From assembly GCA_937928635.1 (NCBI GenBank), contig CALFWM010000048.1:80221-144220 (forward strand): 64,000 nt of DNA. The letters run 5' to 3'. The notes beneath the pieces were generated by a model. That model saw only the letters and a list, made by a program, of their open reading frames with translations. It was not told the DNA's origin and did no database searches. Source of the stretch: an uncultured Sulfitobacter sp. Its GTDB lineage: Bacteria > Pseudomonadota > Alphaproteobacteria > Rhodobacterales > Rhodobacteraceae. This document shows, piece after piece, positions 10,588-29,964 of the stretch (within the stretch, counting starts at the first letter, position 1; each line of letters begins with the position of its first letter). The translations under genes and the position numbers were made by a program.

Positions 10588-11253
10588 TTACGGACTGCGG
10601 CGAATGCCATCTATATGAAGCTCAAACCCGTCTTGGATATGGGCCGTAAAGGCCTCCAGCGCGTCACCACGGTCCCCTGTGGCCAGCACGTCTACCAGCG
10701 CCATGTGATTGCCAAGGGAACTGGCAATATCAGCATTTTCAATTGCTGCAAACAGGTGAAACGCCATCGCGCGCCCCCAGATCATATCGAACATTTCCAA
10801 CAGGAACCGGTTGCCTGCCATCTCCATAAAGGCGCGGTGGATGGTGCGGTTGGCGATGAAATAATCCTGCGTCGTCGGGTTTGTCAGTTTTTCGTTGTCC
10901 TGAATAATGCCCCGCAAGGCATCAAGCTCGCTTGGGTCATTGCGCGCAGCAAGAATGCGTGCAGCTTGCCCCTCAATTGCGGCGCGGGCCTGATAGAGCT
11001 CTAGTGTCTCTTCTTCGGTGATCTTGGCCAGCCGGAACCCGCCGGAATTCGCCAGATGCAGCACACCTTCCTTTTCGAGCCGCAACAGCGCCTCGCGCAC
11101 CGGCGTGCGGCTGATGTCCAGTTCAGCCGCCAGTTTTTCCTGTACCAACCGGTCATCCGGCCCTATGTCACGCGACATAATGGCGGCGACCAATTGATCG
11201 TAAACCTCATCCGCCAACCGGCGTCGTTGAGTGGTGATGCTGCGCAGAGCCAT
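10588..11253 (-). CDS. GntR family transcriptional regulator with an FCD (FadR C-terminal) ligand-binding domain
   Basis: ORF track 10588..11373. I trimmed to the ATG at 11253 ('MALRSITTQRRRLADEVYDQL...LAAELDISRTPVREALLRLEKEG'). The discarded 40 codons lie over the operator-containing intergenic region. Confidence 0.85.
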   Translation of the reverse strand: MALRSITTQRRRLADEVYDQLVAAIMSRDIGPDDRLVQEKLAAELDISRTPVREALLRLEKEGVLHLANSGGFRLAKITEEETLELYQARAAIEGQAARILAARNDPSELDALRGIIQDNEKLTNPTTQDYFIANRTIHRAFMEMAGNRFLLEMFDMIWGRAMAFHLFAAIENADIASSLGNHMALVDVLATGDRGDALEAFTAHIQDGFELHIDGIRRSP

Positions 11254-11280
11254 GAGAGCCTCATATTCCGTATTCTGAAC

Positions 11281-11300
11281 ACTGTATACAAAAATACAGT
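11281..11300. promoter_or_regulatory. inverted repeat ACTGTAT-N6-ATACAGT (operator candidate, site A)
   Basis: Read directly. It lies in the 118-bp divergent region between the GntR gene and the GlxB-like gene and shares the CTGTATAC core with sites B-D. Confidence 0.5.
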
Positions 11301-11330
11301 AGGTGCAATGAGGCTCTTGCGTTGGACTGA

Positions 11331-11346
11331 ATACTGTATACAGTAT
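11331..11346. promoter_or_regulatory. perfect 16-bp palindrome ATACTGTATACAGTAT (operator candidate, site B)
   Basis: Read directly, 26 bp upstream of the ATG at 11372. The GT...AC-centred palindrome fits the general shape of GntR-family operators. Confidence 0.55.
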
Positions 11347-11371
11347 CCGTAAAGCAAAAGGGAGTCGCCCC

Positions 11372-12316
11372 ATGTGTGGTATCGCAGGACGTATTTTGAA
11401 CGCCCCCGGTCAGGTTGGACGGGACCTTGTTAACTTGATGGATGCGCAAGAGCACCGCGGCGCGGATAGCACCGGATTTGCGGTCTACGGTGCCCCGATG
11501 GAACAAGGCTATGTTTTGCGCGGCATGGGGTTTGACAAGGCGCAGATGGACAGTGATCTGGATGCCTTTCGCCACGTGTTGAAAGACCACGGCAGTGACC
11601 TGATGGGTGACCCACGTATCGTGACGGATGCGGCAAAACATTATTGTTTTCGCATGGAGATCAAAGACCCCAAGAACCTGCAGGCCTGGGTTGCGGATGC
11701 CGACGACCTGACCGACCGGATTGAAGTACAATCCTGCGGACGCTCATTGGAAATTATCAAGGATATCGGTGGCGCAGAGCAGGTCAGCGAAAAGCACAAG
11801 GTGCATGATATGATCGGCACCCATGGGTTGGGCCATGCGCGGCTTGCCACGGAATCAAGTGTCTTGCCCAATGCCAGCCACCCGTTTTGGGCGCGCCCCT
11901 TTTCGGATGTGGCGATTGTGCATAACGGGCAGATCACCGACTACTTTACACAGCGGAATCGGCTGGAGCGGGACGGCTATCGGTTCTTGACGGAAAACGA
12001 CTCTGAATTGATTGCTGTATGGGTGTCAGACCAGATGAAACAGGGCCTGAGCATGCAGCAGGCATTGACCAAGTCGATCAGCGCCATTGATGGTGTCTTT
12101 ACATTCATGATCGCCACGCCGGATGGCATTGGATTTGCCAAAGACCGTTTCGCGATGAAGCCCTTGGTGGTTATCGAACATCCCGGCGAACTGGCCGCCG
12201 CCACCGAAGAACAAGCGGTGCGCCGCGTCTATGTAGATGAAAGTGATGTGATCAATCACGATGGTCCCAGCCTGACGGGCATCTGGGGCGTCGGCAACCG
12301 GAGCATGGCAGCATGA
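11372..12316 (+). CDS. class II (Ntn) glutamine amidotransferase-like subunit, GlxB/MgsA-like (GltB N-terminal domain homologue)
   Basis: 314 aa starting 'MCGIAGR' (N-terminal Cys nucleophile). RBS GGGAG upstream. Confidence 0.85.
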   Translation: MCGIAGRILNAPGQVGRDLVNLMDAQEHRGADSTGFAVYGAPMEQGYVLRGMGFDKAQMDSDLDAFRHVLKDHGSDLMGDPRIVTDAAKHYCFRMEIKDPKNLQAWVADADDLTDRIEVQSCGRSLEIIKDIGGAEQVSEKHKVHDMIGTHGLGHARLATESSVLPNASHPFWARPFSDVAIVHNGQITDYFTQRNRLERDGYRFLTENDSELIAVWVSDQMKQGLSMQQALTKSISAIDGVFTFMIATPDGIGFAKDRFAMKPLVVIEHPGELAAATEEQAVRRVYVDESDVINHDGPSLTGIWGVGNRSMAA

Positions 12317-15382: not shown

Positions 15383-16525
15383 CTATCGGCCAGAAGGGCT
15401 CTCTTTGGGCGACAGCTTTTTTCGTCCAGCGATCTTGAACCGGTCGGCTGTGCCGTATTCGCCGAGCGCGACGCCAGCGGTGAAGTCGCCAAAAACAGGG
15501 CCGTGTTTGAACAGGTGACCAGAGCAGCCGCCTGCGAGCAGGACGTTTTCATGCTCCGGGTGCCAATCCACGATGAAATGAGTGTCAGGCGTCAGGATGA
15601 CCTGATTGAACTTGCTGTCCACCACCCGTTGTCCTTCCAGCCCTGGCAGCCGGTGGCGGATATATTGGCGGGTCTTAGTCAGCGATGCCTTTTCGATAAG
15701 ACGTTCATCATTGTTGATATCAATCGGTGTGTTGGGGATCACCACGGCGGCTTTGACCCCTGACCCCTCGGACGAGGGAATTCCAAAGCTGCCTTGCCCA
15801 TGGTCAATCCAGCAGGGCATATTTTCCATATCGAACGCATCTGAACCATCCGGGGTAGAGGTATAGAGCACATTGATGCCCATGATCGCAGAGATAGGTT
15901 TAATGGTGCGCGGAAACAGTTCAGCCATCCAGGCACCGGGCGCCATGACGATAACGTCGGCCATGATTGGCCGCCCTTCCAGCATGGGACGTTCCCGTGC
16001 ATCGGTCGTGACGGTGCCGCGTTTAACCACACCGCCTGCGCGTTTGAACAGATCAAGGGCAGTGATCACGCAGCGATGGGCCATCAGTAACCCGGCTTCT
16101 GGCTCAAACAGCGCATAGCTGATCTCGTCCACTTTGAACTGGGGAAAGCGGTCGTGCACCTCATCCGGGGTGAATTTGTAATAGGGCACGCCGACCTTGT
16201 CGAAAGTCTCAGATGTCGCGTCCTCCCAATGGCAATGCCCTTGGGTGGCAAGGATCAGTGCGCCGCATTCATACATCAGATTCTGGCCGCTCTCGGCCTG
16301 TAGCTCCAGCCACATGTCACGGGATTGACGGACCCAGCGTGTGTAAAATTCATCCCGGCCCGAAATTGCCCGGATCACCCGATTGTAGTCAGAGGAGGCC
16401 GCCCGTGCATGGCCCGGTTCCCAACGGTCAATCAGGGTGACCTGTTCGCCGCGCCGCTGCATGTGCAGGGCTGTCATAACCCCGGCAATACCGCCGCCCA
16501 CAACCACACATGTATTTCGTGCCAT
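15383..16525 (-). CDS. DAO-family FAD-dependent oxidoreductase (sarcosine-oxidase-beta / N-alkyl-amino-acid oxidase-like)
   Basis: ORF track 15383..16657. I trimmed to the ATG at 16525 ('MARNTCVVVGGGIAGVMTA', FAD GxGxxG at the N-terminus). RBS AAGGA upstream. Confidence 0.85.
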   Translation of the reverse strand: MARNTCVVVGGGIAGVMTALHMQRRGEQVTLIDRWEPGHARAASSDYNRVIRAISGRDEFYTRWVRQSRDMWLELQAESGQNLMYECGALILATQGHCHWEDATSETFDKVGVPYYKFTPDEVHDRFPQFKVDEISYALFEPEAGLLMAHRCVITALDLFKRAGGVVKRGTVTTDARERPMLEGRPIMADVIVMAPGAWMAELFPRTIKPISAIMGINVLYTSTPDGSDAFDMENMPCWIDHGQGSFGIPSSEGSGVKAAVVIPNTPIDINNDERLIEKASLTKTRQYIRHRLPGLEGQRVVDSKFNQVILTPDTHFIVDWHPEHENVLLAGGCSGHLFKHGPVFGDFTAGVALGEYGTADRFKIAGRKKLSPKESPSGR

Positions 16526-16562
16526 GACGATAATTTTCCTTGCCGAGTCACTGCATTCATGG

Positions 16563-16578
16563 ATACTGTATACAGAAT
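16563..16578. promoter_or_regulatory. ATACTGTATACAGAAT (15/16 match to the palindrome; operator candidate, site C)
   Basis: Read directly. It is centred in the 96-bp divergent region between the FAD oxidoreductase (start 16525) and the GS-like gene (start 16622). Confidence 0.5.
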
Positions 16579-16621
16579 ACACGCAAAGACAATCAGATTC
16601 TCTGACAGGGAGAGGGACGAG

Positions 16622-17914
16622 ATGAGCCAAGATTTCAGCCTGCCGGAAGGCACCCATACCGTCATTCTGGGGTTAGGTGACTTAAACGGCATTATGCGTG
16701 GCAAACGGATACCGGCCTCGCATTGGGAAACGATTTGCAAAGAGGGCAATGCCCTCTCTGCCGCGATGATGGCCATCGACAGCAATTGCGACGTCTGGGA
16801 CACGCCTTATGTCAACTTCGACAACGGGTATCCGGACATGCATATGTTTCCCATGACCAAGCCTGTGGCTGTGCCATGGGAAGAAGGTGTCGCGGTCTGT
16901 TTTGCGCGCGGTGAAGGGATGGATCACAAACCTGTCCCGATTGATCCACGCAATGCGCTGGTGCGCCAGGTGGAACGGGCCCGGGAAATGGGCTTTGACG
17001 TCTCCACCGGGGCCGAATTGGAGTTTTACCTGCTCGACCCGGAAACCGGTCAGCCGCGTGATCAGGGCATTCAGGTCTATGGCCTTGGTCGTGCCGCGCG
17101 GATGGAGCATATCGTTGGGCCAATCCGCCGTCAGATCAATGAATGCGGCATCCCGATTGAGCAATCCAACCCAGAATATGCGCCCGGTCAGGTTGAGGTA
17201 AACATCCGCTACGATGAAGCGTTGCTAAGTGCGGACCGTGTTGTGCTGTTTAAATCACTGGTGCGCCAGTTGGGCATTGCGCATGGTTATCTTGCAACCT
17301 TCATGCCCAAACCGTTCTTTGAACAATCCGGTAATGGTTTCCACGTGCACTATTCGTTGTGGAAAGATGGCAAAAATGCCTTTGCTGATGGTGGTAAACT
17401 CAACGAATTGGGCAAGAACTTTACCGCCGGTCTGCAGAAACGCATGGGAGAGGCGGCGATCTGTGGGTCACCCACACCCAACGGGTTCCGCCGTCGCCAG
17501 GCTTATACCTTCTGCCCTATCAATACGTCCTGGGGTTATGACAACCGCACCGTTGGGCTGCGGATTATCGAAGGGTCGGACACCGCTGTGCGTGTCGAAA
17601 AACGGGATGCAGGAGCGGATGCAAATCCCTACCTGCTCTTGGCCACCGATCTGGCCGCAGGGCTAGATGGCATTGAACAGGGCATGCAGCCGACGGAGCC
17701 AACCCTGGGCAATGCTTATGAAGATTTTAATGGCGATCCTATCCCCACCACGGCACCGGATGCCATTGCGCAGGCACGCGGGTCTGACTGGTTGAAGGAC
17801 GTCATGGGTGAAACCCTTTGGGAACTTTACCTGCAAATGGCCGAGCGCGAAGTTGGCTTTGTTGAAGAGCAGGTCACGCCCGTCGAAACCGCCCGCTATT
17901 TGAGGACCCTGTAG
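16622..17914 (+). CDS. glutamine synthetase-family protein (GmaS/GlnT-like); candidate gamma-glutamyl-amine synthetase
   Basis: ORF track 16325..17914. I trimmed to the ATG at 16622 (RBS GGGAGAGGGA at 16608-16617). GS catalytic-domain pattern: 'ELEFYL', 'EYAPGQVEVNIRY', 'ATFMPKP...SGNGFHVHYSLW', 'RVEKRDAGADANPYL'. Confidence 0.85.
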   Translation: MSQDFSLPEGTHTVILGLGDLNGIMRGKRIPASHWETICKEGNALSAAMMAIDSNCDVWDTPYVNFDNGYPDMHMFPMTKPVAVPWEEGVAVCFARGEGMDHKPVPIDPRNALVRQVERAREMGFDVSTGAELEFYLLDPETGQPRDQGIQVYGLGRAARMEHIVGPIRRQINECGIPIEQSNPEYAPGQVEVNIRYDEALLSADRVVLFKSLVRQLGIAHGYLATFMPKPFFEQSGNGFHVHYSLWKDGKNAFADGGKLNELGKNFTAGLQKRMGEAAICGSPTPNGFRRRQAYTFCPINTSWGYDNRTVGLRIIEGSDTAVRVEKRDAGADANPYLLLATDLAAGLDGIEQGMQPTEPTLGNAYEDFNGDPIPTTAPDAIAQARGSDWLKDVMGETLWELYLQMAEREVGFVEEQVTPVETARYLRTL

Positions 17915-17915
17915 A

Positions 17916-18185
17916 ATGCAGATCGGCCTTGTCAAAGGAACGCTGACTGCGACCGCAAAGGCCGAACGGCTGACGGGACAAAAGCTGATGGTCGTTGACG
18001 TGATCGACGCTGCTGGCAAGGTCATCGTGCCCTCCTTGGTCGCGGTGGACACCTGCGGGGCCGGCGTTGGCGATGGCGTAATGCTGACCCAAGGGTCGGC
18101 TGCGCGTATGGCCGCTGGCTTGTCCGCCGCCCCCATTGACCTGGCAATTATCGCGGTTGTTGACCGCGTCTCTGTTGATACCTGA
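17916..18185 (+). CDS. BMC vertex pentamer, BMC-P (EutN/CcmL/PduN family, PF03319)
   Basis: 89 aa. '[13 protein letters not shown]...KLMVVDVID...[23 protein letters not shown]...[11 protein letters not shown]' aligns along its length with E. coli EutN as I remember it. The ATG lies 1 nt after the GS-like stop. Confidence 0.9.
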
Positions 18186-18217: not shown

Positions 18218-18526
18218 ATGGCAACTCCTGCACCGGGCCAGATGGCCCTTGGAATGATTGAAACACGTGGCCTCATCGGCGCAATTGAAGCGGCGGACGC
18301 CATGGTAAAAGCGGCCAGCGTCACCATCGTGGGCCAGACCAAGGCAGGCGGTGGGTTGGTCACAACCCTTGTGCGCGGCGAAGTGGGTGCCGTCAAAGCG
18401 GCCACCGATGCAGGCGCAACAGCGGCCAACAAGGTCGGTGATGTCGTGAGTGTTCATGTGATCGCGCGCCCCCATGATGAGCTTGAGGCGATCATCGACA
18501 GCCTTGGCGCTGGTTCCGCAGCTTAA
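18218..18526 (+). CDS. BMC shell hexamer, BMC-H (PduA/EutM/CcmK family, PF00936)
   Basis: 102 aa. '[61 protein letters not shown]...VHVIARPH' is near-canonical. The pore loop reads KAGGG. Confidence 0.92.
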
Positions 18527-18542
18527 GCCCTAAGGACACTCC

Positions 18543-19727
18543 ATGCCCGCTGATTTTGAGGATTTCGCACGCGCTGCCTCACGCAGCCGTTCCGACAGCG
18601 TTCCTGCATCCGCTCCCCTGTCAAAGGTTGCGGTGCTGGGCGGCGGTCCGGATGCGCGTTTGCTAGCGGCCTTGTCCTCGGCGGCAGATTGCGAGGTCAC
18701 GCTGTTCTCGGCCTACGGGCGTGAGTTGGAGCTGATGCGGGCATCCTCTGGCATCGCGTTGCGGGGTGCCGGACCCATTGGCAGCTATCAGGTGGACCGC
18801 GGTGCGGCCTCAATTGCCCTGACCGCAGAACTCGACGCGGCGGTACAGGGGGCGGAGGTGATTTTTCTAACCGGGCCCATTCACAAACAACGCACATACG
18901 CGATGGTCCTGGCGGACCATCTGGTAGATGGCCAAATTTTGGTGCTGGCACCGGGGCGGTCATTGGGGGCGGTTGAATCCGCCTGGATGCTGCGATTGGG
19001 TGGTTGCACGGCGGATGTGACCTTGGTTGAGGTACAAGGACTGCCCTATTGGTATGTGACTGAAGGGGCGACTTTGTATTTGTCCAGCTCTGCCCCTATG
19101 GCTGCATCAACCTTGCCCCGTGGTCGCGGTGGCGTGCTGGATCAGCTAAAATCAATCCTGCCAAATATTGTTAGTACAGAATCTGTATTGGCCTCTGGCT
19201 TCAGTGATCTTTCGGCGGCTGTCGAAATCCCGGCACTTGTGCTGGGTGGGGCTGGTCTGGCACAGGGTGGAGTCAATGTTCCGATGGGTGGAACACCATT
19301 GGCGCAGAACCAGACCTTTGCTGCCTTGATCGGGTCTGATCAGTATCGTTTGATTGAAAGTCTCGCAGAAGAACGCCGTGCCGTAGCCCAAGCCTTTGGC
19401 GTGCGTGGTTTGCCGGATAACGATGCCTGGATTGCGACATATGCTGGTGCCGAGAAAGGCGAAGGTGCACGCCCCGTACCGGACCGTGACACTGCCCGTG
19501 CGATGCTGCGGGATGGGGTTATTGGATCGCTTGTGCCGCTTGCGTCAGCAGCGGAACTGGCCGACATCGACGTTCCCCAAACCCGTGCGCTGATGGCCAT
19601 GACAGGGGCGATTCTGGATGCTGATGTTGCGGCATCCGGTCGGCGGCTGGATACGATGGGCATCACGGAGCGCAATCTGGATGCTGCGCGCCGTACCTTT
19701 GATGCGCTCACGGCAGGAGGCCGCTGA
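18543..19727 (+). CDS. opine (octopine/nopaline) dehydrogenase-family protein with atypical motifs and an N-terminal tail
   Basis: 394 aa. 'ILPNIVSTESVLASGFSDLSAAVEIPALVLG', 'AEERRAVAQAFGVRGLP' and 'GSLVPLASAAELADIDVPQTRAL' parallel opine-dehydrogenase family blocks from memory. The Rossmann motif reads 'VLGGGPDA'. Confidence 0.7.
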   Translation: MPADFEDFARAASRSRSDSVPASAPLSKVAVLGGGPDARLLAALSSAADCEVTLFSAYGRELELMRASSGIALRGAGPIGSYQVDRGAASIALTAELDAAVQGAEVIFLTGPIHKQRTYAMVLADHLVDGQILVLAPGRSLGAVESAWMLRLGGCTADVTLVEVQGLPYWYVTEGATLYLSSSAPMAASTLPRGRGGVLDQLKSILPNIVSTESVLASGFSDLSAAVEIPALVLGGAGLAQGGVNVPMGGTPLAQNQTFAALIGSDQYRLIESLAEERRAVAQAFGVRGLPDNDAWIATYAGAEKGEGARPVPDRDTARAMLRDGVIGSLVPLASAAELADIDVPQTRALMAMTGAILDADVAASGRRLDTMGITERNLDAARRTFDALTAGGR

Positions 19728-21103
19728 TGGACAATGACCTTAAATCCATCGCCGCCGCGCGCCGCGCTGCTGAAAGTGCCTTTGACGCCTATCAAAAATT
19801 TCTGGGCACGGACCCTGCCCATGTAGACGCCATCGTTGACGCCATGGCCCGCGCGATTGAACCCGAGGCGGAGCGCCTTGGCCAGCTTGCCGTAGATGAA
19901 ACGGGGTATGGGAACGTGCCGGACAAACGGGTCAAAAACCTGTTCAACTCCCTGTCGGTGGCGGAGTATCTGCGCGACATCACAACCCTAGGCATGCTCT
20001 GGCGCGATGACGCGACCAAGATTGCCGCCTTTGGTGAACCGATGGGCGTTGTGGCAGCCTTGATCCCGGTCACCAATCCGACCTCTACGATTATCTTTAA
20101 AGTGTTGAGCGCGGTGAAGGCAGGCAATGCGATCATCTGCGCGCCCCACCCGCGCGGTGTACGTGCGGGTCTGGAAACAACCAGGATCATGGCGGAGGTG
20201 GCCGAACAGATGGGTGCCCCCAAGGGGCTGATCCAATGTATGGATCAGGTGACCATTCAGGGCACCGCAGAACTGATGCGACACCGACGGATGTCTGTGG
20301 TGATGGCAACCGGCGGGCCCGCGATGGTCAAGGCAGCCTATTCCAGCGGTAAACCCACGTTGGCCGTAGGGGCCGGGAATGTACCCTGCTACGTGCACAA
20401 GTCGAAAAAGAACGACATTGGTGAAGTGGCCGAAATGATCGTCACCTCCAAGAGTTTTGATTATGGGACGGCCTGTGTTTCAGAACAGGCGGTCATTGCA
20501 GACCCCGAGGTCGCGCGTGATTTGCGCCATGAGATGAAACTGAAAGGTGCCTATTTCTGCACGCCCGCGGAAGCTGACCGATTGGCAGCTGTAATTTTTA
20601 CCGGCAAGCAAGCGATGAACCCGGAGCGGGTCGGGCAATCTCCGCAAGCCCTGGCAGATGCCGCAGGATTTTCGATCCCGCCCCGCACGCGGTGTCTGGT
20701 GTCTGAGGAAACCGAGATTGGTTGGGAACGCCCCCTGTCAGCGGAAAAGTTAAACCCGGTTCTGGCCTTTTATGAGGCAAAGAATTCAGAGCACGGTCTG
20801 GAATTGGCGCAACGCATTGCGCGGTTTGAGGGCTGGGGGCATTCGTCTGTTCTGCATAGTGACGACCCTGAAATTGTCGCCAAATTTGCCACCATCCCCA
20901 CCGGGCGCGTGTTGGTGAACACACCCGCAATCATGGGCGGCATGGGGTATTCGACCGATCTAGAGCCGTCATTCATGTTGGGGACAGGCACATGGTCCGG
21001 GTCAATTACCTCTGACAATGTTACAGCACTCCATCTGATCAACATCAAGCGGGTGGCATATGAGAGCCGACCCTGGCGCGACATCTACAAGGAATACGGG
21101 TAG
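19727..21103 (+). CDS. CoA-acylating aldehyde dehydrogenase (EutE/PduP-like metabolosome core AldDH)
   Basis: 458 aa. 'LAVDETGYGNVPDK', 'ATGGPAMVKAAYSSGKP' and the catalytic-Cys context 'FDYGTACVSEQAVIAD'. TGATG overlap with the upstream gene. Confidence 0.85.
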   Translation: MDNDLKSIAAARRAAESAFDAYQKFLGTDPAHVDAIVDAMARAIEPEAERLGQLAVDETGYGNVPDKRVKNLFNSLSVAEYLRDITTLGMLWRDDATKIAAFGEPMGVVAALIPVTNPTSTIIFKVLSAVKAGNAIICAPHPRGVRAGLETTRIMAEVAEQMGAPKGLIQCMDQVTIQGTAELMRHRRMSVVMATGGPAMVKAAYSSGKPTLAVGAGNVPCYVHKSKKNDIGEVAEMIVTSKSFDYGTACVSEQAVIADPEVARDLRHEMKLKGAYFCTPAEADRLAAVIFTGKQAMNPERVGQSPQALADAAGFSIPPRTRCLVSEETEIGWERPLSAEKLNPVLAFYEAKNSEHGLELAQRIARFEGWGHSSVLHSDDPEIVAKFATIPTGRVLVNTPAIMGGMGYSTDLEPSFMLGTGTWSGSITSDNVTALHLINIKRVAYESRPWRDIYKEYG

Positions 21104-21160: not shown

Positions 21161-21784
21161 ATGTCTGAAATTACCATTCGCGCGTTGATGCAGATCGACA
21201 ATCTGCAACCCAAATTCGCGGCCTACAATGGGGCCACTGTGCAGGGTTCCGTACCGCTTTCCGGGGATACGGTCCTGATCGGGGAATTTGCGCCGGGCAA
21301 TGGTGTGTTTTCGCTGATTGATCGCGCGCTGAAGGCGTCAAGCGTTGAGGCGACCACGCAGATGGTCGAACGGGAGTTTGGCTTTTTCATCCTCCGTTCC
21401 CCCTCAAACGCTGAGGTCTCCGCCGCGCGCGATGCGATGCTGGCTGAACTGGGTGCGTCGATGTCGGACCGTTTGAAACCAGCGATCACAAACACCCAGA
21501 TCATCACCAGCGTAGAGCCCTATCAGGCACAATTGCTCAACAAATGGCGAAAGGGGTCGCTGTTGGTGCCGGGGCAGACGCTTGGCATTATTGAATGCGC
21601 CCCTGCGGCCTATATTTCCATCGCCGCAAATGAGGCGGAAAAGGCCGCAGATATTGACATGGTTGAGGTCCGCGCGGTGGGTCGTTTTGGACGACTGTTT
21701 ATCTCCGGCACAGAAAATTCAGTGCAGGATGCCATGGACGCCGCCGTAACGGCGATTGAGGCTGTTGAGGGCCGCGCTGAATGA
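21161..21784 (+). CDS. tandem-domain BMC shell protein, BMC-T (EutL/PduB-like topology)
   Basis: 207 aa. There are two BMC-like halves: 'TVLIGEFAPGNGVFSLIDRALKASSVEA...FGFFILRSPSNAEVSAARDAM' and 'TLGIIECAPAAYISIAANEAEKAADIDMVEV...GRLFISGTENSVQDAMDAAVTAIE'. Each is preceded by a roughly 35-aa segment, as in EutL. Confidence 0.8.
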   Translation: MSEITIRALMQIDNLQPKFAAYNGATVQGSVPLSGDTVLIGEFAPGNGVFSLIDRALKASSVEATTQMVEREFGFFILRSPSNAEVSAARDAMLAELGASMSDRLKPAITNTQIITSVEPYQAQLLNKWRKGSLLVPGQTLGIIECAPAAYISIAANEAEKAADIDMVEVRAVGRFGRLFISGTENSVQDAMDAAVTAIEAVEGRAE

Positions 21785-22962
21785 GTACAGGCCGCGTCAT
21801 AGGCACTGACACGGTGGAGGATGCACGCCGTCGCAGCCGGTTGATCGTCGAGGTCATGCCCGGCGATATTGTCACTGCCCTCGCGCGGGAATCAGCCGAA
21901 CGTTTTGGCCTGAAACTGGTCGATGGCCCGGTTGAGATGCCTGCTCCGGTGCGCACAGACGGGGCCACATCCATGCGCCGTACGCTTTATCGGCGTGCAC
22001 CCAAATGGCAAGCCCCCGCACGCCGTCCGCGCAAAGCCCGCCAGTTGGGCAAGCTGGCCCTGATTGGCGCAGGTGGTGTGGGTGGCAACATCGCACATTT
22101 GGCCGCGATGGCGGATATGGCGCAAGAAATTGCGTTGATCGACATCGCGCCGGGTTTGGCGGCAGCGACTGCGTTGGATCTAAACCACGCAAGCGGGATA
22201 ACCGGTGCGGCCGGGCGATGCTTGGGTGGTGAAACGCTCGATCTGGTTGCGGGGGCGGAGGTTGTTGTTGTCACTGCCGGACGCGCACGTGGGCCTGGCA
22301 TGACGCGGGCCGATTTGATTGACGTGAATGCACGTGTGATCCGCGCGGCGGGTGAGGCGATCCGCTCTGAAGCACCAGATGCGGTTGTGATTGTCGTGAC
22401 CAACCCACTGGATGAAATGACCGTTAAGATGTTGCGTGCCACCGGGTTCCCGCGGGAGCGCGTCTTGGGCATGGCAGGTACGCTGGATTCCTCTCGCTTC
22501 CGGCATGCCTTGGCACGTGCGGCAGGGGTTGATCCGGCAGATGTTGATGCGATCACCCTGGGAAGCCATGGCGAAGAAATGGCCCCCATTCCGTCCCGTG
22601 CCACGATCAAGGGGCGACCGCTGGAGGTGTTCCTGAGCACCGATCAGATCGAGACCTGTGTGCAGGACGCGATCACCGGTGGGGGTCAGGTTGTCGCCTT
22701 GAAAAAGATGGGGTCCGCGACCATCGCGCCGGCCCATGCCTCTATCGAGTTGATCGACCACATGCGCGATGCGCGGTCGGGCCCTGTTCCGGTTTCTGTG
22801 ATGCTTGAGGGTGAATATGGGATTGAGGGTGTCGTACTGGGCGTACCGGCACATTTGGGTGCGCGCGGATTTGTTAAGGTTGAGGAATTGCGCCTGACTG
22901 ATTCCGAAACTGCAGGGCTGCATGCCGCAGCAGAAGCGATCCGCGCGCGGTTGGGTTTATGA
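21781..22962 (+). CDS. LDH-like malate dehydrogenase-family enzyme with an about 90-aa N-terminal extension
   Basis: 393 aa. From residue ~91: 'KLALIGAGGVGGNIA', 'VTAGRARGPGMTRADL', 'VVTNPLDEM', 'GTLDSSRFR', 'LGSHGEEM'. Residues 1-88 lie outside the MDH/LDH fold. ATGA overlap with the BMC-T gene. Confidence 0.85.
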   Translation: MSTGRVIGTDTVEDARRRSRLIVEVMPGDIVTALARESAERFGLKLVDGPVEMPAPVRTDGATSMRRTLYRRAPKWQAPARRPRKARQLGKLALIGAGGVGGNIAHLAAMADMAQEIALIDIAPGLAAATALDLNHASGITGAAGRCLGGETLDLVAGAEVVVVTAGRARGPGMTRADLIDVNARVIRAAGEAIRSEAPDAVVIVVTNPLDEMTVKMLRATGFPRERVLGMAGTLDSSRFRHALARAAGVDPADVDAITLGSHGEEMAPIPSRATIKGRPLEVFLSTDQIETCVQDAITGGGQVVALKKMGSATIAPAHASIELIDHMRDARSGPVPVSVMLEGEYGIEGVVLGVPAHLGARGFVKVEELRLTDSETAGLHAAAEAIRARLGL

Positions 22963-23366
22963 GCACGCAAATCCACAAGGCTGGCGGACGGTTTGAAGAA
23001 ATTGGCAGCTATGCGCGCGCCAAACGGATTGGCCCCTTCGTTTGGACAGCTGGCACAACCGCGATCGAACCATCCGGCAAAATCCATGCCCCGGATGATG
23101 GATATGCGCAGACGCGCTACATTCTGAGCCGCATCAAAGAGTTCCTGGGCGAGGTTGGTGCCGAGATGCGGCATGTCGCCCGGGTGCGGGTCTATCTGAC
23201 AGATATGAAACACGCTGCCGGGTTCATCAAGGCGCATGGTGAGGTGTTCAAAGACATTGATCCGGTGCTGACGGCGGTGACGGCGGGGCTGACGCAAACG
23301 GGGCTGGTGGTTGAGATTGACGTTGATGCGGTTATTCATGATACAGACGGCACGATAGCGATCTAG
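22959..23366 (+). CDS. RidA/YjgF/L-PSP family protein (reactive enamine/imine deaminase family)
   Basis: 135 aa. 'GPFVWTAGTTA', 'VRVRVYLTDM' and 'PVLTAVTAGL...LVVEIDVDAV' fit the Rid fold. ATGA overlap with the upstream gene. Confidence 0.8.
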   Translation: MSTQIHKAGGRFEEIGSYARAKRIGPFVWTAGTTAIEPSGKIHAPDDGYAQTRYILSRIKEFLGEVGAEMRHVARVRVYLTDMKHAAGFIKAHGEVFKDIDPVLTAVTAGLTQTGLVVEIDVDAVIHDTDGTIAI

Positions 23367-23446
23367 TGTATTCCGGTCGTGCAATGGCGTGCACCACCTC
23401 TCCTTACGGGTTTCATTTTGAACCACCCCGCTCTAGCCTGTCACAC

Positions 23447-23755
23447 ATGTTGTTCAAAGTTGTTAAAGCCCCCTCCGGCGGGTCGCCGCAGTGGGTCCGT
23501 GATGCCTGGGTCGGTGTTCAATTCCAGGCCCTTCAGGGTGTGCCAGTTACCGTACCTGCCCGGGCATCGGGCGAAGCAGAGGTGACGCAGCGGCGCGGCT
23601 ATCCCGCAAATGCACGTGATTTGCTGGGTTTGCTGGCCCTCGCAAACGAAGACGCTGCACGTTGGTATTTGGACAATGCTCCGCAAATGCTTGACCCGAA
23701 ACAGGTTTTTGTTTTGGACGAACCTTGCTGTGTGGCCATCGCTGAGCTGAACTGA
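23447..23755 (+). CDS. hypothetical small protein (last gene of the BMC operon)
   Basis: ORF track 23366..23755. I prefer the ATG at 23447 ('MLFKVVKAPSGGSPQWVRDAWVG...'). No family recognised and the RBS is weak. Confidence 0.4.
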   Translation: MLFKVVKAPSGGSPQWVRDAWVGVQFQALQGVPVTVPARASGEAEVTQRRGYPANARDLLGLLALANEDAARWYLDNAPQMLDPKQVFVLDEPCCVAIAELN

Positions 23756-23826
23756 GCAACGCCGTATTTGCCCCGGTCACACGCTGTATCGTGTCAAAAT
23801 AAACGTTGATCGGATTGGCAAGCTGT

Positions 23827-23842
23827 GTACTGTATACAGGAT
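23827..23842. promoter_or_regulatory. GTACTGTATACAGGAT (14/16 match to the palindrome; operator candidate, site D)
   Basis: Read directly, 49 bp upstream of the ATG at 23891. It overlaps a possible promoter: TTGATC (23806-23811), 16 nt spacer, TACTGT (23828-23833). Confidence 0.45.
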
Positions 23843-23890
23843 ACAAAAATGATCCCATTCAACCGGGGCACCAACAACTGGGAGAAAAAA

Positions 23891-25171
23891 ATGACATTTG
23901 GACGTAGTATAATAACCGGGCTTGCCGCCTCGCTGTTGGCAAGCACGGCCATGGCTGAGGTGAAAGTTGGCTTTATCGGTTCGTTGAGTTCAGACACCGG
24001 CCTGTCCACCCTACGTGGTGCCGAGATCGCAATTGAAGAGCTGAACGCCGCTGGTGGCATGAACGGCGAGAAAATTGTGCTGGTCAGCGCCGATACCGCA
24101 GAGGATGTGACCGAAGGTGTGAAAGCCTATGAATATCTGGCGGAAACGGAGGAGGTGGACTTTATCATCTCCGGCTCCATTGATGACGTATCTTTGGGTT
24201 GGCTGCCGCGTATGCAGGAATACCAGATCCCGACGCTGGACACCTGGACCAGTTACATCGGCATCATTGACATGGTGGTCGAAGACCCAGAGCTGATGGC
24301 CCCTTATTTCATGAACATCGCCTCTGATGAGGCGCTTGCGACGCTCTATATCAACTTTGGTGCGGATGTGCTCAAGGCTAAAATGGGCTGGGACAGCGTT
24401 GTTATTCTGGCCGAAGACACCGCATTTGGTGAAGCGATCACCGGTCTTGTGACCGAGGCGCTGGGCCCTGTGGCTGGCATCGAGGTCAAGGACATCATCA
24501 CCTATGACGTCGGCACTGTCGATTTCGCACCGCTGTTTTCCAAGGCGCAGGCCTCTGGTGCGGACTTTATCTATCAGGTCTCTTCTGTGAACTCACAGGT
24601 GATCTCCTCACAGTACGTGAAACTGCAGGTGCCCATGGCGATGACAGGTGTGAATGTCTCTGCGCTGGGTCTGGAATATTGGGAAGACACCGGTGGTGCC
24701 GGTGGTGGTATTTCCACACTGTCCCCGATCCCCTCCGTGGGTTTTGAACTGGATCCCGAAAGCCAGAAATTTGTCGATACCTATCAGTCCAAATATGACA
24801 GCCGTCCCAAGATGCCGCACTTTAACGGCTTCAACGCCTATTGGGGTCTGAAACAGGCCATGGCGGCCGCTGAGGCTGCCGGTGGGTTTGAAGATGCCGC
24901 CAAATGGGCCAAAGAGATGGAAAAGCAGGACATCACGCTGAAAAAAGACGGCAAGTTGTGGTTGCGCTATGCCTTCTGGGGCGCAGATGAGGTTGAGGAA
25001 GTGACGGGCCGGACCTACCCGCACAACGCACGTTTTGACCTGACGGCACCCTATGACGATGCGCAGCCTTCCATGGTTGTGATTCAGTGGAAAGAAGACG
25101 GCGGCGTTGGGGTGGTTTATCCACCAGAATACGCGACAACCGACTTCACTGTTCCAAGCTGGGTTAAGTAA
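23891..25171 (+). CDS. ABC transporter periplasmic substrate-binding protein (Leu/Ile/Val/amide-binding type)
   Basis: ORF track 23825..25171. I trimmed to the ATG at 23891 (RBS GGGAGA, signal peptide 'GLAASLLASTAMAEV'). 'KVGFIGSLSSDTGLSTLRGAEIAIEELNAAGG' is typical of this SBP family. Confidence 0.85.
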   Translation: MTFGRSIITGLAASLLASTAMAEVKVGFIGSLSSDTGLSTLRGAEIAIEELNAAGGMNGEKIVLVSADTAEDVTEGVKAYEYLAETEEVDFIISGSIDDVSLGWLPRMQEYQIPTLDTWTSYIGIIDMVVEDPELMAPYFMNIASDEALATLYINFGADVLKAKMGWDSVVILAEDTAFGEAITGLVTEALGPVAGIEVKDIITYDVGTVDFAPLFSKAQASGADFIYQVSSVNSQVISSQYVKLQVPMAMTGVNVSALGLEYWEDTGGAGGGISTLSPIPSVGFELDPESQKFVDTYQSKYDSRPKMPHFNGFNAYWGLKQAMAAAEAAGGFEDAAKWAKEMEKQDITLKKDGKLWLRYAFWGADEVEEVTGRTYPHNARFDLTAPYDDAQPSMVVIQWKEDGGVGVVYPPEYATTDFTVPSWVK

Positions 25172-25178
25172 ACCTGCT

Positions 25179-25206
25179 GTTCAGGGCGGCTGCGGCTGCC
25201 CTGAAC
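25179..25206 (+). promoter_or_regulatory. intra-operon hairpin GTTCAGGGC-N10-GCCCTGAAC between the SBP and permease genes
   Basis: Read directly; a 9-bp perfect stem. Such hairpins after SBP genes commonly stabilise or attenuate transcripts. There is no U-tract. Confidence 0.4.
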
Positions 25207-25231
25207 CACATCCTGAACGGGTCACCTCCCC

Positions 25232-26083
25232 ATGATGCAGATCATTGTCCAAGGGCTGTTGCTGAGCGGCCTTTATGCGCTCATCGCGATGGGTTTTATG
25301 CTGATCTTCTCGATCGGGCGCACGCTGAACCTTGCCTATGGCGCCTACATCATGGTGGGCGGCTATATGTACTTCTGGCTGTCCCAGCAGTTGGGCATGC
25401 CTCAGGTGATCGGCTTTTTGGGCGCGGTCTCTGTGGGTGCGCTGATCGGGTTGCTCAAGCATCGATTGATCGTCAAACCGCTTAAGGGTGACGCGGTCGC
25501 CGTTGAGATTGCGACCCTGATCCTTGCACTCATCACGCAGTTCGCCTTGGTGTTGATCTTTGGTGATGCGTCAAAAATCCTGCTGCCCCTGATCCCTGGT
25601 GTGGTCACGGTGGCGGGTGCGCAAGTCACTTATAACATCCTTGCCGCCACGGTGATGAGCTGGATTATTATCCTTGCGCTGTATGCGTTTGTGCGCGGCA
25701 CTCACACAGGCCGTGCCATGCAGGCCGTGTCGATGGATGAAAAGGGCGCGGCTATCTCCGGGATCGACCCGGATCGGATCAACATGATTACCTGGGGGAT
25801 TTCCGGTGCATTGGGCGCAGCGGGTGGCGTGTTTTTTGCAAGTTATACGCAACTCAGCCCACAGATGTGGCTTGCCCCGGTGATTATCTCTGTAGCGATT
25901 GTGATTGTTGGAGGGATTGGCTCCATCATTGGCACGCTGATCGTAGCACATATCATTGGCTTTCTGGAAATCACTGTGGTTGCCGTATTGGCTCCCGAAC
26001 TGCGCGGCGTACTTACAATGGTGTTGATCATCGGTGTGCTGATCATGCGCCCTCAGGGCCTGTTCGGGCGGGAGGAGCACTAG
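25232..26083 (+). CDS. branched-chain-amino-acid-type ABC permease (LivH-like)
   Basis: 283 aa polytopic membrane protein; 'GLLLSGLYALIAMGFMLIFS' and 'GGIGSIIGTLI' are LivH-family features. Confidence 0.85.
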   Translation: MMQIIVQGLLLSGLYALIAMGFMLIFSIGRTLNLAYGAYIMVGGYMYFWLSQQLGMPQVIGFLGAVSVGALIGLLKHRLIVKPLKGDAVAVEIATLILALITQFALVLIFGDASKILLPLIPGVVTVAGAQVTYNILAATVMSWIIILALYAFVRGTHTGRAMQAVSMDEKGAAISGIDPDRINMITWGISGALGAAGGVFFASYTQLSPQMWLAPVIISVAIVIVGGIGSIIGTLIVAHIIGFLEITVVAVLAPELRGVLTMVLIIGVLIMRPQGLFGREEH

Positions 26084-27081
26084 ATGGACCTACGCCCGCA
26101 TCACTTCATCCTTTGGGGTCTGTTCATCGCAGCCATGCTGCTGATGCCGGAACTGGTCAGCAAGGGCACGCTGCGCACGATGATTTTTGCCTGTTACCTC
26201 GCTATGTTCGCAATCTCTTGGGATATTCTGTCGGGGCGTACCGGGTATATTTCATTTGGGCATCCGTTTCTGATTGGCATTGGGGCCTATACCACCGCGA
26301 TCCTGACACGGCGCTATGGATTTCCAGTGGAGGCCTCAATCCCCATCGCAGTTGTTGTCACCATGTTTGGCGGGTTGATTGTGTTACTGCCTGCCTTGCG
26401 GATCAAAGGCAGCTATTTCGCTCTGGTCACCCTGGCGGTGATGGAGCTGATGCTGCAATTGATCCCTGTCGTTCGCCCCGATCTGACCGCTGGCACGCGG
26501 GGGATCTCTCGTTTGCCCGCTCTGACGCGCGGGGCAGAGGACGGATATTATTTGGCCGTAGGGCTGATGCTGGCGATAGCGCTCTTTGCATGGCTGTTGA
26601 TGCGCACGCGGCTGGGGACGGCGCTTTGGGCGATTGGCATGAATGAGGAAAGCGTGCGCGGCTCTGGCTTGTCCACTACCCGGCTGAAAAGTTTTGCCTT
26701 TCTGGTGTCCGCTGCGATTGCCGGGCTGGCCGGCGCTTTTTACGCGCACCACCTCGGCGCTGTTACACCCCGCTCGATCTTTGATGTAAACCTACTGTTC
26801 CAGATTATTGTGGCCTGTTTGCTAGGGGGGCAGGCACCATTTTTGGACCCATCATTGGCGCATTCTTCATGGTGTTTTTGTTGGCGTACCTGCGTTCGGC
26901 AATCAGCACTGAGATGGTCGAGCTATGGCCATTTCTGGAGCCAGTTCAGTTTGCGCTCAAGGGACAGGGCCGGTTCTTTGTCTATGCGCTGATCGCCTTA
27001 TTGCTCTATATGTATCAACCCAAAGGCATCATGGCGATTGGTGAAAGCCTGTGGACCAAGCTGCGGAGGTCACGCTCATGA
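26084..27081 (+). pseudogene. LivM-like ABC permease interrupted by a -1 frameshift in a G6 run (26825-26830); either a sequencing error or a real inactivation
   Basis: Frame 1 (26084..) reads '...CLLGGQAPFLDPS...' and then becomes nonsense. Shifting by one base at the G-run restores the canonical LivM motif 'LLGG(A)GTIFGPIIGAFFMVFL' and runs to the TGA at 27079-27081. That stop overlaps the next gene's ATG (27078) in an ATGA. Confidence 0.7.
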
Positions 27082-27809
27082 CTGTTGCACTGGAAGTCCG
27101 CAATCTGGTCAAAAAATTTGGCGGTCTGGTCGCCACAAATGATCTGAGCTTTGATCTGGCGGAAGGGGAATCGCTTGGTCTCATTGGCCCGAATGGCGCG
27201 GGCAAGACCACCGTTTTCTCCCAAGTTATGGGCGAATTACGCCAAACCTCTGGCACCATCAAACTGTTTGGCACTGAGATTTCCGGCCTGTCTACCGCGC
27301 AACGCATCGCGCGGGGCGTCAGCCGGACCTATCAGGTGCCGCGCCCCTTTGCAGACCTCAGCGTGCGGGAAAATATCCGGGTTGGCCTGATGCCAGATTC
27401 CTTACGCGCGATGATCTTTGGCGCGGCGGACAAGAACCGCGAGGCGGAGTTGGCGCAATCTATTGGCTTTTCCCCGGCTGACCTGGAGCGGCCGGCCTCA
27501 GAGCTGTCGATGGGCGATCTGCGCAAGCTGGAATTTGCCCGCACGTTGGCCACTGGAGCAAAAGTCCTGCTGCTTGATGAAGTCTTTGCTGGGCTCACCA
27601 CGGGTGAGATTTCCCAGATTGCCGCACTGATTCAGGACCTGCGCGCGCGCGGATTTACCTTTCTGATGGTCAGCCACGACTTGCCCGCGATGGAGCCGCT
27701 GGTGGACCGCGCCCTTGCAATCGAACGCGGCACTTTGCTGGCCCAAGGGCCCTTTGCCGAGGTGCTTTCAGACGCTGCTGTGCGTGCCTCATATCTGGGG
27801 GTCGCGTGA
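27078..27809 (+). CDS. ABC transporter ATP-binding protein (LivG-like)
   Basis: ORF track 27051..27809. I trimmed to the ATG at 27078 ('MTVALEVRNLVKKFGG'). Walker A 'GPNGAGKTT', signature 'LSMGDLRKLE', Walker B 'LLLDE'. Confidence 0.85.
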   Translation: MTVALEVRNLVKKFGGLVATNDLSFDLAEGESLGLIGPNGAGKTTVFSQVMGELRQTSGTIKLFGTEISGLSTAQRIARGVSRTYQVPRPFADLSVRENIRVGLMPDSLRAMIFGAADKNREAELAQSIGFSPADLERPASELSMGDLRKLEFARTLATGAKVLLLDEVFAGLTTGEISQIAALIQDLRARGFTFLMVSHDLPAMEPLVDRALAIERGTLLAQGPFAEVLSDAAVRASYLGVA

Positions 27810-28507
27810 TGATCCGTGTTGAAAATCTCTCAGCATTTTATGGCAAGGCGCAAGCGTTGCGCGACGTGTCGTTGCACGTCGATGAGGGTGAGACGATTGC
27901 GATTGTCGGTGCCAATGGCGCAGGTAAATCCACGCTGCTCGACAGTATTATGGGGCTTGTGCGCAACACGGGCAGCATCACGATGGACGGGCAGGACATT
28001 ACCGGACGCAAGCCCGCCGATATGGTGCGCATGGGCATTGGTTATGCGCCGGAACGGTTCAACCTGTTCCCGCACATGACGGTGCGCGACAACCTGCTGG
28101 TGGGGGCCTATACCGCGCGCGATGAGATTGAAAAAAACATGGCCGCCGTGCACCGCCTGTTCCCGCGATTGGCCGAGCGGGAGGGCCAAGAGACCTCAAC
28201 CCAGTCAGGCGGAGAGCGGCAGATGGTGTCACTGGGCCGTGCTTTGATGACCAACCCGCGTGTGTTGCTGGTGGACGAACCGACCATTGGTCTGGCCCCA
28301 AAAGTTTGCGTTGAGATCGCAGAGGTGCTCAAAAGGCTCAGCGCCGAAAGGGGACTGACCGTGATCGTTACCGAACAGAATACAAATTTCGCGCTATCGC
28401 TGGCCAGTCGTTTGTATGTGCTGGAAGGGGGTCATGTGACAGCCGAAGGAACAGCCGATGAGCTGTCAAAGGACGATCAATTGGCCAAGAGTTACTTCGG
28501 CGCCTGA
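27806..28507 (+). CDS. ABC transporter ATP-binding protein (LivF-like)
   Basis: 233 aa. 'GANGAGKSTLL', 'QSGGERQMVSLGRAL', 'LLVDEPTIGLAP'. ATGA overlap with the upstream gene. Confidence 0.9.
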   Translation: MMIRVENLSAFYGKAQALRDVSLHVDEGETIAIVGANGAGKSTLLDSIMGLVRNTGSITMDGQDITGRKPADMVRMGIGYAPERFNLFPHMTVRDNLLVGAYTARDEIEKNMAAVHRLFPRLAEREGQETSTQSGGERQMVSLGRALMTNPRVLLVDEPTIGLAPKVCVEIAEVLKRLSAERGLTVIVTEQNTNFALSLASRLYVLEGGHVTAEGTADELSKDDQLAKSYFGA

Positions 28508-28509
28508 GA

Positions 28510-29964
28510 TCAGGTGGAAAGCAACGGCGGGGGCACATAGCCACCTATCTCAGCTTCCACCGCGCGCGCAAACGCCAGTGCAGTGTAGTCGCGCCCATGC
28601 CCGGTGATCGCCTGATACCCCACAGGCAATCCGCTGATTTGATCCATCGGACCAACGATCGAGGGCAACCCAACCACCCCGGAATAGCCGGACCAGAACA
28701 GTTGCAGCGGTTCCAGCTGTGGCTTGCCGTTCACCTCAATGAAGCGCATTTGACGCGAGCCAACTTCATCGCGCAAAAATGCAGGACCTGCACAGACGGG
28801 GGCAAGGATCACGTCAAAATCCTCAAAGAACGCATCAAACTTCAGGCGTGCGATGCGGCGTTGATTGTCCAGCGCCATCCATTCCCGGTGGCTGATGGTG
28901 GCGCCCGACATGCGCGTGCCACCCACACGCTGGATGATCGGATCGGCGTCTTTGAACGGCGCTGCGGCGGCTTCTGCTTCTTCATCTGACATACCAAACG
29001 ACAGGGCCGCTCCAAGCAATTTCAGGTAGAGTGAAAAATGTGCCTCGCTGTCGATGTCGGGCAATTGATTGCGCACAACTGTCGCGCCTTGCTTTTCGAG
29101 GGCGTCCGCAAAGAAGGACAATGCATCCAAATAAGCGGATTCCACCGGAGAAGCCGTATCCCCCAACGTCAACGCAATCCTGAAATCCTTGAGCCTGTGG
29201 CGATGGTCAGCGGGCAGGCCCAGCGCATATTGCGACCCCTCAAACCGGGATGGTCCGGCAAGGATATGCGTGGCCAGCGTCAAATCCTCCGCAGTGCGCG
29301 CCAGTGGTCCGCCCACACCAATGTCGATATCGCCAAACCATCCGTCCGGCAGATGGCCCTGCATCGACACAGCATTCCATGTGGGTTTCAGACCAAAAAT
29401 GCCGTTGTAATGCGCTGGGTTGCGGATGGAGGAGCCGATGTCGCTGCCCACTTCCAGTGCGGACATGCCTGTGGTGATCGCCACGCCCGCGCCGCCGGAG
29501 GAGCCGCCGGGCGTGCGGGTTTCATCCCATGGGCTGAGCGTGCTGCCGTAGATTTCGTTAAAGGTCTGCCATTCAACCAGCTTCAGCGGCACGTTGGTTT
29601 TGCCATAGATGATCCCGCCTGCGGCGCGGTAGCGGGCAACGGCATCTGAGTCCGTATCGCGTATGTTATCCGCCCACTCGGGGATGCCCCACGTGGTCGG
29701 GCTGCCCGCCAGATCAAAACTCTCTTTCACGGTGATCGGCACGCCGTGCAGGGGGCCGCGCGATTGGCCTTTGGCAGTCTCTGCATCGCAGGCCTGCGCC
29801 TGCGCCATCGCGCCGTCGCGATTTTGCCAGATCACCGCGTTTAGCTTGGGATTCAAAGCATCAACCCGCGCAAAGGTCTGGGTCAACAGTTCAACGGCCG
29901 AGACCTCACCCGACGCGATAGCCGCCGCTTGCGCAGTGGCCGATGAAAGCAGCAGATCGGACAT
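28510..29964 (-). CDS. amidase (amidase-signature family)
   Basis: 484 aa with the AS signature 'GGSSGGAGVAITTGMSALEVGSDIGSSIRNPA'. Confidence 0.9.
   Translation of the reverse strand: MSDLLLSSATAQAAAIASGEVSAVELLTQTFARVDALNPKLNAVIWQNRDGAMAQAQACDAETAKGQSRGPLHGVPITVKESFDLAGSPTTWGIPEWADNIRDTDSDAVARYRAAGGIIYGKTNVPLKLVEWQTFNEIYGSTLSPWDETRTPGGSSGGAGVAITTGMSALEVGSDIGSSIRNPAHYNGIFGLKPTWNAVSMQGHLPDGWFGDIDIGVGGPLARTAEDLTLATHILAGPSRFEGSQYALGLPADHRHRLKDFRIALTLGDTASPVESAYLDALSFFADALEKQGATVVRNQLPDIDSEAHFSLYLKLLGAALSFGMSDEEAEAAAAPFKDADPIIQRVGGTRMSGATISHREWMALDNQRRIARLKFDAFFEDFDVILAPVCAGPAFLRDEVGSRQMRFIEVNGKPQLEPLQLFWSGYSGVVGLPSIVGPMDQISGLPVGYQAITGHGRDYTALAFARAVEAEIGGYVPPPLLST

Follow-up and report, generated by a model that had tools for sequence, protein, structure and literature searches.

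The window, meaning the whole 64,000-nucleotide stretch analysed here, belongs to contig CALFWM010000048.1 of an uncultured Sulfitobacter sp. and carries a bacterial microcompartment (BMC) locus. Among its genes is one for a protein of the lactate/malate dehydrogenase (LDH/MDH) family, hereafter the MDH-like protein, in which residues 1–88 form an extension ahead of the catalytic domain (Table 1). The first part of this extension is a homologue of the N-terminal segment with which EutQ binds a BMC shell, and the protein may be a cargo enzyme that docks on the shell and regenerates NAD+ inside it. The start ATG of the gene shares an ATGA with the stop codon of the BMC-T gene on its 5′ side, and its own stop codon shares an ATGA with the start of the RidA gene, so that the gene is translationally coupled to both.

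Table 1. Features of the MDH-like gene and of the surrounding BMC locus, in window coordinates (aa, residues of the MDH-like protein)
Feature	Coordinates	Strand	Basis
Coding sequence of the MDH-like protein (LDH/MDH-like), 393 aa	21781..22962	+	ATG start; open reading frame list, Pfam
Extension module 1 (aa 4-50), small alpha/beta module, homologue of EutQ 1-53	21790..21930	+	hidden Markov model, decoys, hhalign, AlphaFold2 (AF2)
Extension module 2 (aa 58-80), basic motif TDGxTxxRRxLYRRSPKWxAP, predicted helix 61-71	21952..22020	+	alignment, AF2
LDH-like malate dehydrogenase catalytic domain (aa 91-389), NAD-type	22051..22947	+	Pfam, alignment
Mobile substrate loop TAGRARGPGMTRADL (aa 165-179)	22273..22317	+	alignment
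GntR/FCD regulator, divergently transcribed	10588..11373	-	
N-methylglutamate-synthase-like trio (GATase_6, GXGXG, Glu_synthase) and class-I GATase/peptidase C26	11372..15174	+	
FAD amine oxidase (monomeric sarcosine oxidase/N-methyl-Trp oxidase/PuuB-like)	15383..16519	-	
Glutamine synthetase (GS)-like gamma-glutamyl ligase (pfam00120), probable start	16622..17914	+	
BMC-P (EutN/CcmL) vertex protein	17916..18185	+	Pfam
BMC-H shell protein	18218..18526	+	Pfam
6-Phosphogluconate dehydrogenase (6PGDH)/opine-dehydrogenase-like oxidoreductase, N-terminal encapsulation-peptide-like helix	18543..19727	+	
Acylating aldehyde dehydrogenase (AldDH; EutE/AdhE-N type), without encapsulation peptide	19727..21103	+	
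BMC-T(dp) shell protein, CcmP-like	21161..21784	+	
RidA/Rid-family protein, conserved beside the MDH-like gene	22959..23366	+	
Liv-type ABC transporter (binding protein, two permeases, two ATPases)	23825..28507	+	

The locus is a MIC2-type BMC, MIC standing for "metabolosome with incomplete core"; such compartments are widespread. The type is defined by this gene content in Supplementary Data 2 of Sutter et al. 2021 (Nat Commun 12:3809, PMC8217296). Shared with the catalogue entry are a single BMC-H, a single BMC-P and a single BMC-Tdp shell protein, an AldDH lacking an encapsulation peptide (EP), a GS-like gene, a 6PGDH-like protein with a short EP, and an LDH/MDH-family protein (pfam02866) whose N-terminal extension occurs in BMC context only and has detectable homology to EutQ. 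The extension is about 88 residues long here and consists of two conserved modules, whereas the catalogue gives about 70; otherwise nothing substantive differs. The catalogue places the extension in the pfam02866 protein of MIC1 as well, and lists Ruegeria sp. ANG-R as a MIC2 genome. The locus of that strain (L019) is syntenic with the window and encodes an MDH-like protein 80% identical to the one described here.

The enzyme, its extension and the EutQ homology were already described in 2021, and Axen et al. 2014 (PMC4207490) had proposed that an LDH/MDH-pfam protein regenerates NAD+ in the PVM and MIC1 types. A preliminary description of this DNA, made from the sequence alone, had presented an MDH-type enzyme as a new cofactor-recycling solution, and in view of these two papers the claim to novelty falls. 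The present result is a confirmation with added detail, the catalogue having flagged the feature. What is added is a quantified EutQ homology confined to the segment of helices H1/H2, a conserved second motif, a wide distribution with strict BMC linkage, and an apparent pseudoenzyme lineage. The LDH/MDH-family protein of the PVM type (Erbilgin et al. 2014, as cited in Axen et al. 2014) likewise has a proposed NAD+-regenerating role in a metabolosome without a canonical alcohol dehydrogenase. It differs in belonging to a separate profile group of the catalogue (pvmeut, against mic12) and in being thought to reduce lactaldehyde, not a 2-oxo-dicarboxylate.

The dehydrogenase domain

The catalytic part of the protein is a complete LDH-like malate dehydrogenase (MDH), as the preliminary description had concluded for residues ~91–393. 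Pfam places Ldh_1_N at residues 91–230 (2.9e-33) and Ldh_1_C at 234–389 (2.3e-23), all catalytic residues are in place, and the strings quoted earlier are present: IGAGGVGGNIA at 95–105, TNPLD at 207–211, DSSRF at 236–240 and GSHGE at 261–265. Over residues 88–391, the protein is ~45% identical to LDH-like MDHs of solved structure, and it scores above the cut-off of the broad MDH subfamily model of NCBIfam (NF004863; 306 against 283). In an alignment to the Chloroflexus MDH, residues D121, R170, R176, N208, D236, R239 and H263 correspond to D53, R102, R109, N140, D168, R171 and H195. The arginine at the position that separates malate from lactate dehydrogenases, also claimed earlier, is R170, the second Arg of GRARG, which aligns with R102 and is an arginine in 84 of 85 relatives. 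The classic signature of oxaloacetate is R102 combined with the usual R171/H195/D168 set.

The mobile substrate loop, TAGRARGPGMTRADL, holds R170, the R109 equivalent R176, and R168, an extra arginine at position 100 that is specific to the family. The loop of the family reads GRARxPGM[TS]R, that of canonical MDH GxPRKPGMSR, and the extra arginine is found in 78 of the 85 aligned members. Of these 85 sequences, which are family members from Alpha- and Gammaproteobacteria, 84 carry every one of the seven functional residues, so selection acts on catalysis in the proteobacterial clade. Among the closest known enzymes are the bacterial LDH-like (type 3) MDHs, such as those of Chloroflexus aurantiacus (1GUY/1UXG) and Methylobacterium extorquens (4ROS), which share fold, domain order, ~40–45% identity, NAD specificity (Asp53) and the other six functional residues with the MDH-like protein. 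The MDH-like protein differs from them in its 88-residue extension, its GRARxPGM loop, a score below the cut-off of the MDH equivalog model, and its restriction to BMC loci. The AlphaFold model of the full-length protein is too poor (predicted local distance difference test, pLDDT, 62.8) for docking of the extension to be judged from it.

The two modules of the extension

In over 100 clusters from Sulfitobacter, Ruegeria, Tropicibacter and their relatives, the protein is always 393 residues long and can be aligned from residue 1. When one genome per species was scanned, 568 candidate stretches encoding relatives came up, of which the best 80 loci were examined; these relatives are 59–89% identical and include Rhodobacterales, Hyphomicrobiales, Granulosicoccaceae, SUP05 and Arenicellales. 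The best 80 loci belong to marine and soil Alpha- and Gammaproteobacteria. All of these best 80 loci retain the extension, with matches beginning at residue 1–6. Comparison of the window with nine loci gives a ratio of nonsynonymous to synonymous substitution rates (omega) of 0.10–0.18 for the extension and 0.04–0.075 for the catalytic domain, at saturated synonymous sites. The extension is under purifying selection and is translated, it is conserved in orthologues, and the preliminary description was right in treating it as part of the protein. A start codon downstream of the extension was considered and is excluded by the conservation from residue 1 and the low omega in the extension.

The linkage to the compartment is strict. 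Wherever the flank allows, the BMC-T, AldDH, 6PGDH-like, BMC-H and BMC-P genes are adjacent to the MDH-like gene; the GS-like, FAD amine oxidase and RidA genes likewise co-occur with it wherever the flank suffices, and the N-methylglutamate-synthase-like trio and the ABC transporter do so in most loci. With a MIC2 locus wherever the flank suffices and the record of BMC context only in the catalogue (Sutter 2021), the earlier association of the extension with BMC proteins is well founded.

At E ≤ 10, Pfam has no match in residues 1–90. The string which the preliminary description singled out is present at residues 4–50, and the EutQ string to which it was likened matches the real protein of E. 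coli, whose sequence from NC_000913 was used for the tests. Pairwise BLASTP between the extension and EutQ gives E = 0.002. A hidden Markov model (HMM) built from residues 3–52 of 28 diverse extensions scores 25.9 bits on EutQ residues 5–44 (E 2.7e-10, one comparison), and the best of 5000 shuffled EutQ sequences scores 10.4 bits on the same model. Against 1833 decoys, namely six-frame open reading frames (ORFs) of the window and of three other loci, EutQ stands out as the sole non-self match (E 6e-7), the next score being 6.3 bits. A profile-profile alignment with hhalign pairs residues 3–54 of the extension with EutQ 1–53 at a probability of 95.4% (E 1.7e-8), and the homology is limited to this segment. 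An exhaustive phmmer search of the extension against 1.84 billion representatives returned LDH/MDH N-termini, two low-complexity false matches and no EutQ, which means that the relation to EutQ is visible at profile level only. A word-indexed homologue search with the 88-residue extension alone found three short fragments only, and neither a sequence-profile search of the PDB nor a Foldseek search of the PDB with the extension model gave a significant match; the module is not known from any solved structure.

Modelled alone by AlphaFold (pLDDT 82.7), the extension is predicted to form a beta-alpha-beta-alpha-beta unit with helices at residues 9–17 and 33–42, and a further helix at 61–71. The canonical encapsulation peptide of BMC cargo is one amphipathic helix of ~18 residues joined to the enzyme by a poorly conserved linker. 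Module 1 is not such a peptide, being a unit of ~50 residues followed by a conserved segment, not by a variable linker.

In EutQ, residues 1–99 are enough to bring GFP into the Eut BMC (Sci Adv 2025, PMC12487888). Helices H1/H2 (residues 9–41) bind the shell at the EutM/EutL interface, and helices H3/H4 (62–99) bind the encapsulation peptides of cargo (PMC12487888). By profile comparison, module 1 is a homologue of the shell-binding H1/H2 segment, and since the homologous part of EutQ is the part that binds the shell, module 1 is likely a shell-docking device. Both proteins carry the module at the far N-terminal end of an enzyme domain, with a flexible, Pro-rich stretch after it. The MDH-like protein differs from EutQ of Salmonella and E. 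coli in having a dehydrogenase in place of the cupin/acetate-kinase domain (PF06249; there is no Pfam cupin match), in having no detectable counterpart of H3/H4, and in that the partner shell protein would be a CcmP-like BMC-T, not EutL. It shares a module with EutQ and is not itself a EutQ.

Module 2 is as strongly conserved as the catalytic core, with R67 and R72 invariant and W76 present in 84 of 85 sequences. The preliminary description had called this region a basic Pro/Arg-rich linker. Its basic character stands, residues 53–90 carrying a net charge of +10; its reading as a mere spacer does not, given the conserved motif listed in Table 1. Module 2 as a counterpart of EutQ H3/H4 was considered and rejected: its HMM scores −2.1 bits on EutQ, and the hhalign alignment ends at residue 54. 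In the PDB, nothing similar to module 2 was found. The N-terminal peptide that the 6PGDH-like protein carries was checked for co-variation with module 2, which is constant even where the peptide differs. That peptide is acidic and module 2 is basic.

Candidate roles in the compartment

The favoured reading, to which a probability of about 50% is assigned, is that the MDH-like protein is an LDH/MDH-family cargo of the MIC2 BMC, combining EutQ-type shell docking with lumenal reduction of an oxaloacetate-type substrate that recycles NAD+. Module 1 would dock the enzyme on the lumenal face of the shell; like other LDH-like MDHs, the enzyme is presumably tetrameric. The catalytic domain, a putative NAD-dependent 2-hydroxyacid dehydrogenase with its residues intact and Arg at position 102, would use NADH to reduce what is most likely oxaloacetate or a close 2-oxo-dicarboxylate. 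NAD+ would thereby be regenerated for the AldDH, and possibly also for the EP-bearing 6PGDH/opine-dehydrogenase-like enzyme, in the same shell, and the reducing equivalents would exit as malate. Such a lumenal oxaloacetate reductase is a plausible NAD+ recycler: NADH is made by the AldDH, and possibly by the 6PGDH-like enzyme, and neither an alcohol dehydrogenase nor another obvious consumer of NADH is encoded in the locus.

Several observations weigh against this reading. On the MDH equivalog model of NCBIfam (TIGR01763) the protein scores 265, below the cut-off of 352, and its loop differs from that of canonical MDH, so that the substrate may perhaps be other than oxaloacetate. The 6PGDH-like enzyme could equally be the reductase. 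MIC2 shells contain no EutM or EutL orthologue shown to bind module 1, and NAD+ recycling leaves the conserved module 2 unaccounted for. A further difficulty comes from a divergent lineage of 63.7% GC with the same locus layout (P0155; L084 10001–11188 and L085 7658–8845), in which the MDH-like protein has lost R102, R109, N140 and D168, keeps both extension modules, and scores only 158 bits on the MDH subfamily model. The AldDH of this lineage keeps its catalytic Cys. Judged by these losses, the P0155 protein cannot recycle NAD+; it looks like a pseudoenzyme retained for a non-catalytic role. With the extension kept in an otherwise intact locus, NAD+ recycling is not the universal conserved role of the family, and the lineage suggests, beside catalysis, a structural role resembling that of EutQ.

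The dead-site lineage, in which both modules survive in an intact locus, is also an argument that the protein is chiefly a structural hub, the MIC2 counterpart of EutQ, with catalysis secondary or dispensable. The oligomer would then display several shell-binding modules, and the basic motif would recruit cargo such as the acidic FE(D/E)F peptide or the EP-less AldDH. This fits the correspondence of module 1 to EutQ H1/H2, EutQ itself joining a linker role to an enzyme domain; it also fits a module 2 as conserved as the catalytic core, the strong positive charge around it, and an AldDH without an EP of its own. The invariance of the catalytic residues in 84 of 85 proteobacterial members argues that catalysis is selected, and module 2 is unlike the EP-binding helices of EutQ, which makes a mainly structural role rather unlikely. 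Much the same standing is given to a pathway enzyme that would oxidise or reduce a specific 2-hydroxy/2-oxo-dicarboxylate of the amine or gamma-glutamyl pathway of the locus, with no part in recycling. The failed equivalog cut-off and the position-100 arginine speak for it, as does the retention of the gene with the GS-like, N-methylglutamate-synthase-like, FAD amine oxidase, opine-dehydrogenase-like and RidA genes; a pathway of this kind would have glutamate and 2-oxoglutarate-type dicarboxylates as intermediates. Its improbability comes from a gene content that names no specific intermediate, from the classic oxaloacetate signature of the active site, and from the dead-site lineage, which suggests that the pathway can do without the step. 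A tentative proposal, less likely than not, joins two of these ideas: the MDH-like protein as the EutQ equivalent of MIC2 and MIC1, at once a shell-binding, cargo-recruiting hub and an oxaloacetate/malate shuttle, and in at least one lineage an organiser alone.

Two further alternatives fare worse. Sutter et al. 2021 described the extension as "possibly interacting with a ligand", and its predicted fold as a compact alpha/beta unit would suit a ligand-binding or regulatory domain in place of a targeting device. In EutQ, the homologous segment is not part of the cupin ligand-binding domain, and later work showed that it binds the shell (PMC12487888); the extension is seen in BMC context only, which leaves this explanation very unlikely. 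That the protein is an ordinary cytosolic housekeeping MDH, adjoining BMC genes by chance, is barely credible. Public annotation does name it "malate dehydrogenase", and the broad subfamily model accepts it. The canonical, sucC-linked roseobacter mdh of TM1040, however, has no extension, is 39% identical to the MDH-like protein and passes the equivalog model with 425 bits, against 265 here; the MDH-like gene sits inside a BMC operon with start and stop codons overlapping its neighbours, and the protein is found in BMC loci only. Low identity to canonical mdh and the failed equivalog cut-off together mark the MDH-like protein as a predicted diverged paralogue, not the housekeeping MDH, in keeping with the preliminary description. 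A plasmid collection held only canonical mdh genes and no copy of the MDH-like protein.

The MDH-like protein is the best candidate for the NAD+ step of MIC compartments. Its EutQ-type module offers a concrete, testable entry point to cargo loading in a minimal shell of three proteins and, if this proves true, module 1 would be usable as a portable targeting tag for engineering.

Other genes of the locus

At the start of the 6PGDH-like protein (18543–18650), an FE(D/E)F(A/T)xA helix is conserved, and a variable linker of 15–25 residues separates it from the Rossmann motif; helix and linker together are a typical predicted encapsulation peptide. The AldDH aligns over its residues 2–456 to model positions 1–454 and has no extension at either end. 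The pore loop of the BMC-H protein is TKAGGGL, with Ala at a position where Ile is usual in PduA/EutM-type hexamers, and the pore might be slightly different and suited to charged metabolites.

The flanking genes between 11372 and 17914 stay with the BMC genes across Alpha- and Gammaproteobacteria (L002–L083), and as a set they are similar to amine pathways of the N-methylglutamate and Puu (gamma-glutamyl) types. As a lead only, the set suggests that the substrate of MIC2 is a primary amine processed via gamma-glutamyl or N-alkylglutamate intermediates, and that the compartment handles the derived aldehyde. In the literature, nothing was found on a roseobacter BMC, nor anything linking BMCs to N-methylglutamate or gamma-glutamyl pathways. 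The GS-like gene is listed as an ORF of 529 residues with a TTG start (16325–17914), which overlaps the oppositely oriented oxidase gene. Since the Ruegeria orthologue has 430 residues, translation probably begins at the ATG near 16622 instead of the TTG at 16325.

An ORF of 129 residues (23366–23755) lies between the RidA gene and the gene for the transporter binding protein. It has no Pfam or NCBIfam match, was detected only in a few loci, Sulfitobacter-like or related ones (L004, L006, L014 and L035), and is absent from Ruegeria. An amidase gene (28510–29964, minus strand) comes immediately after the ABC transporter; the tblastn matrix shows it in only two related loci, and it is probably outside the conserved system. 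A metagenomic representative predicted at 456 residues (P0146) is a frameshifted read-through from an MDH-like gene into a RidA gene, and it places genes of these two kinds side by side in a distant high-GC lineage as well.

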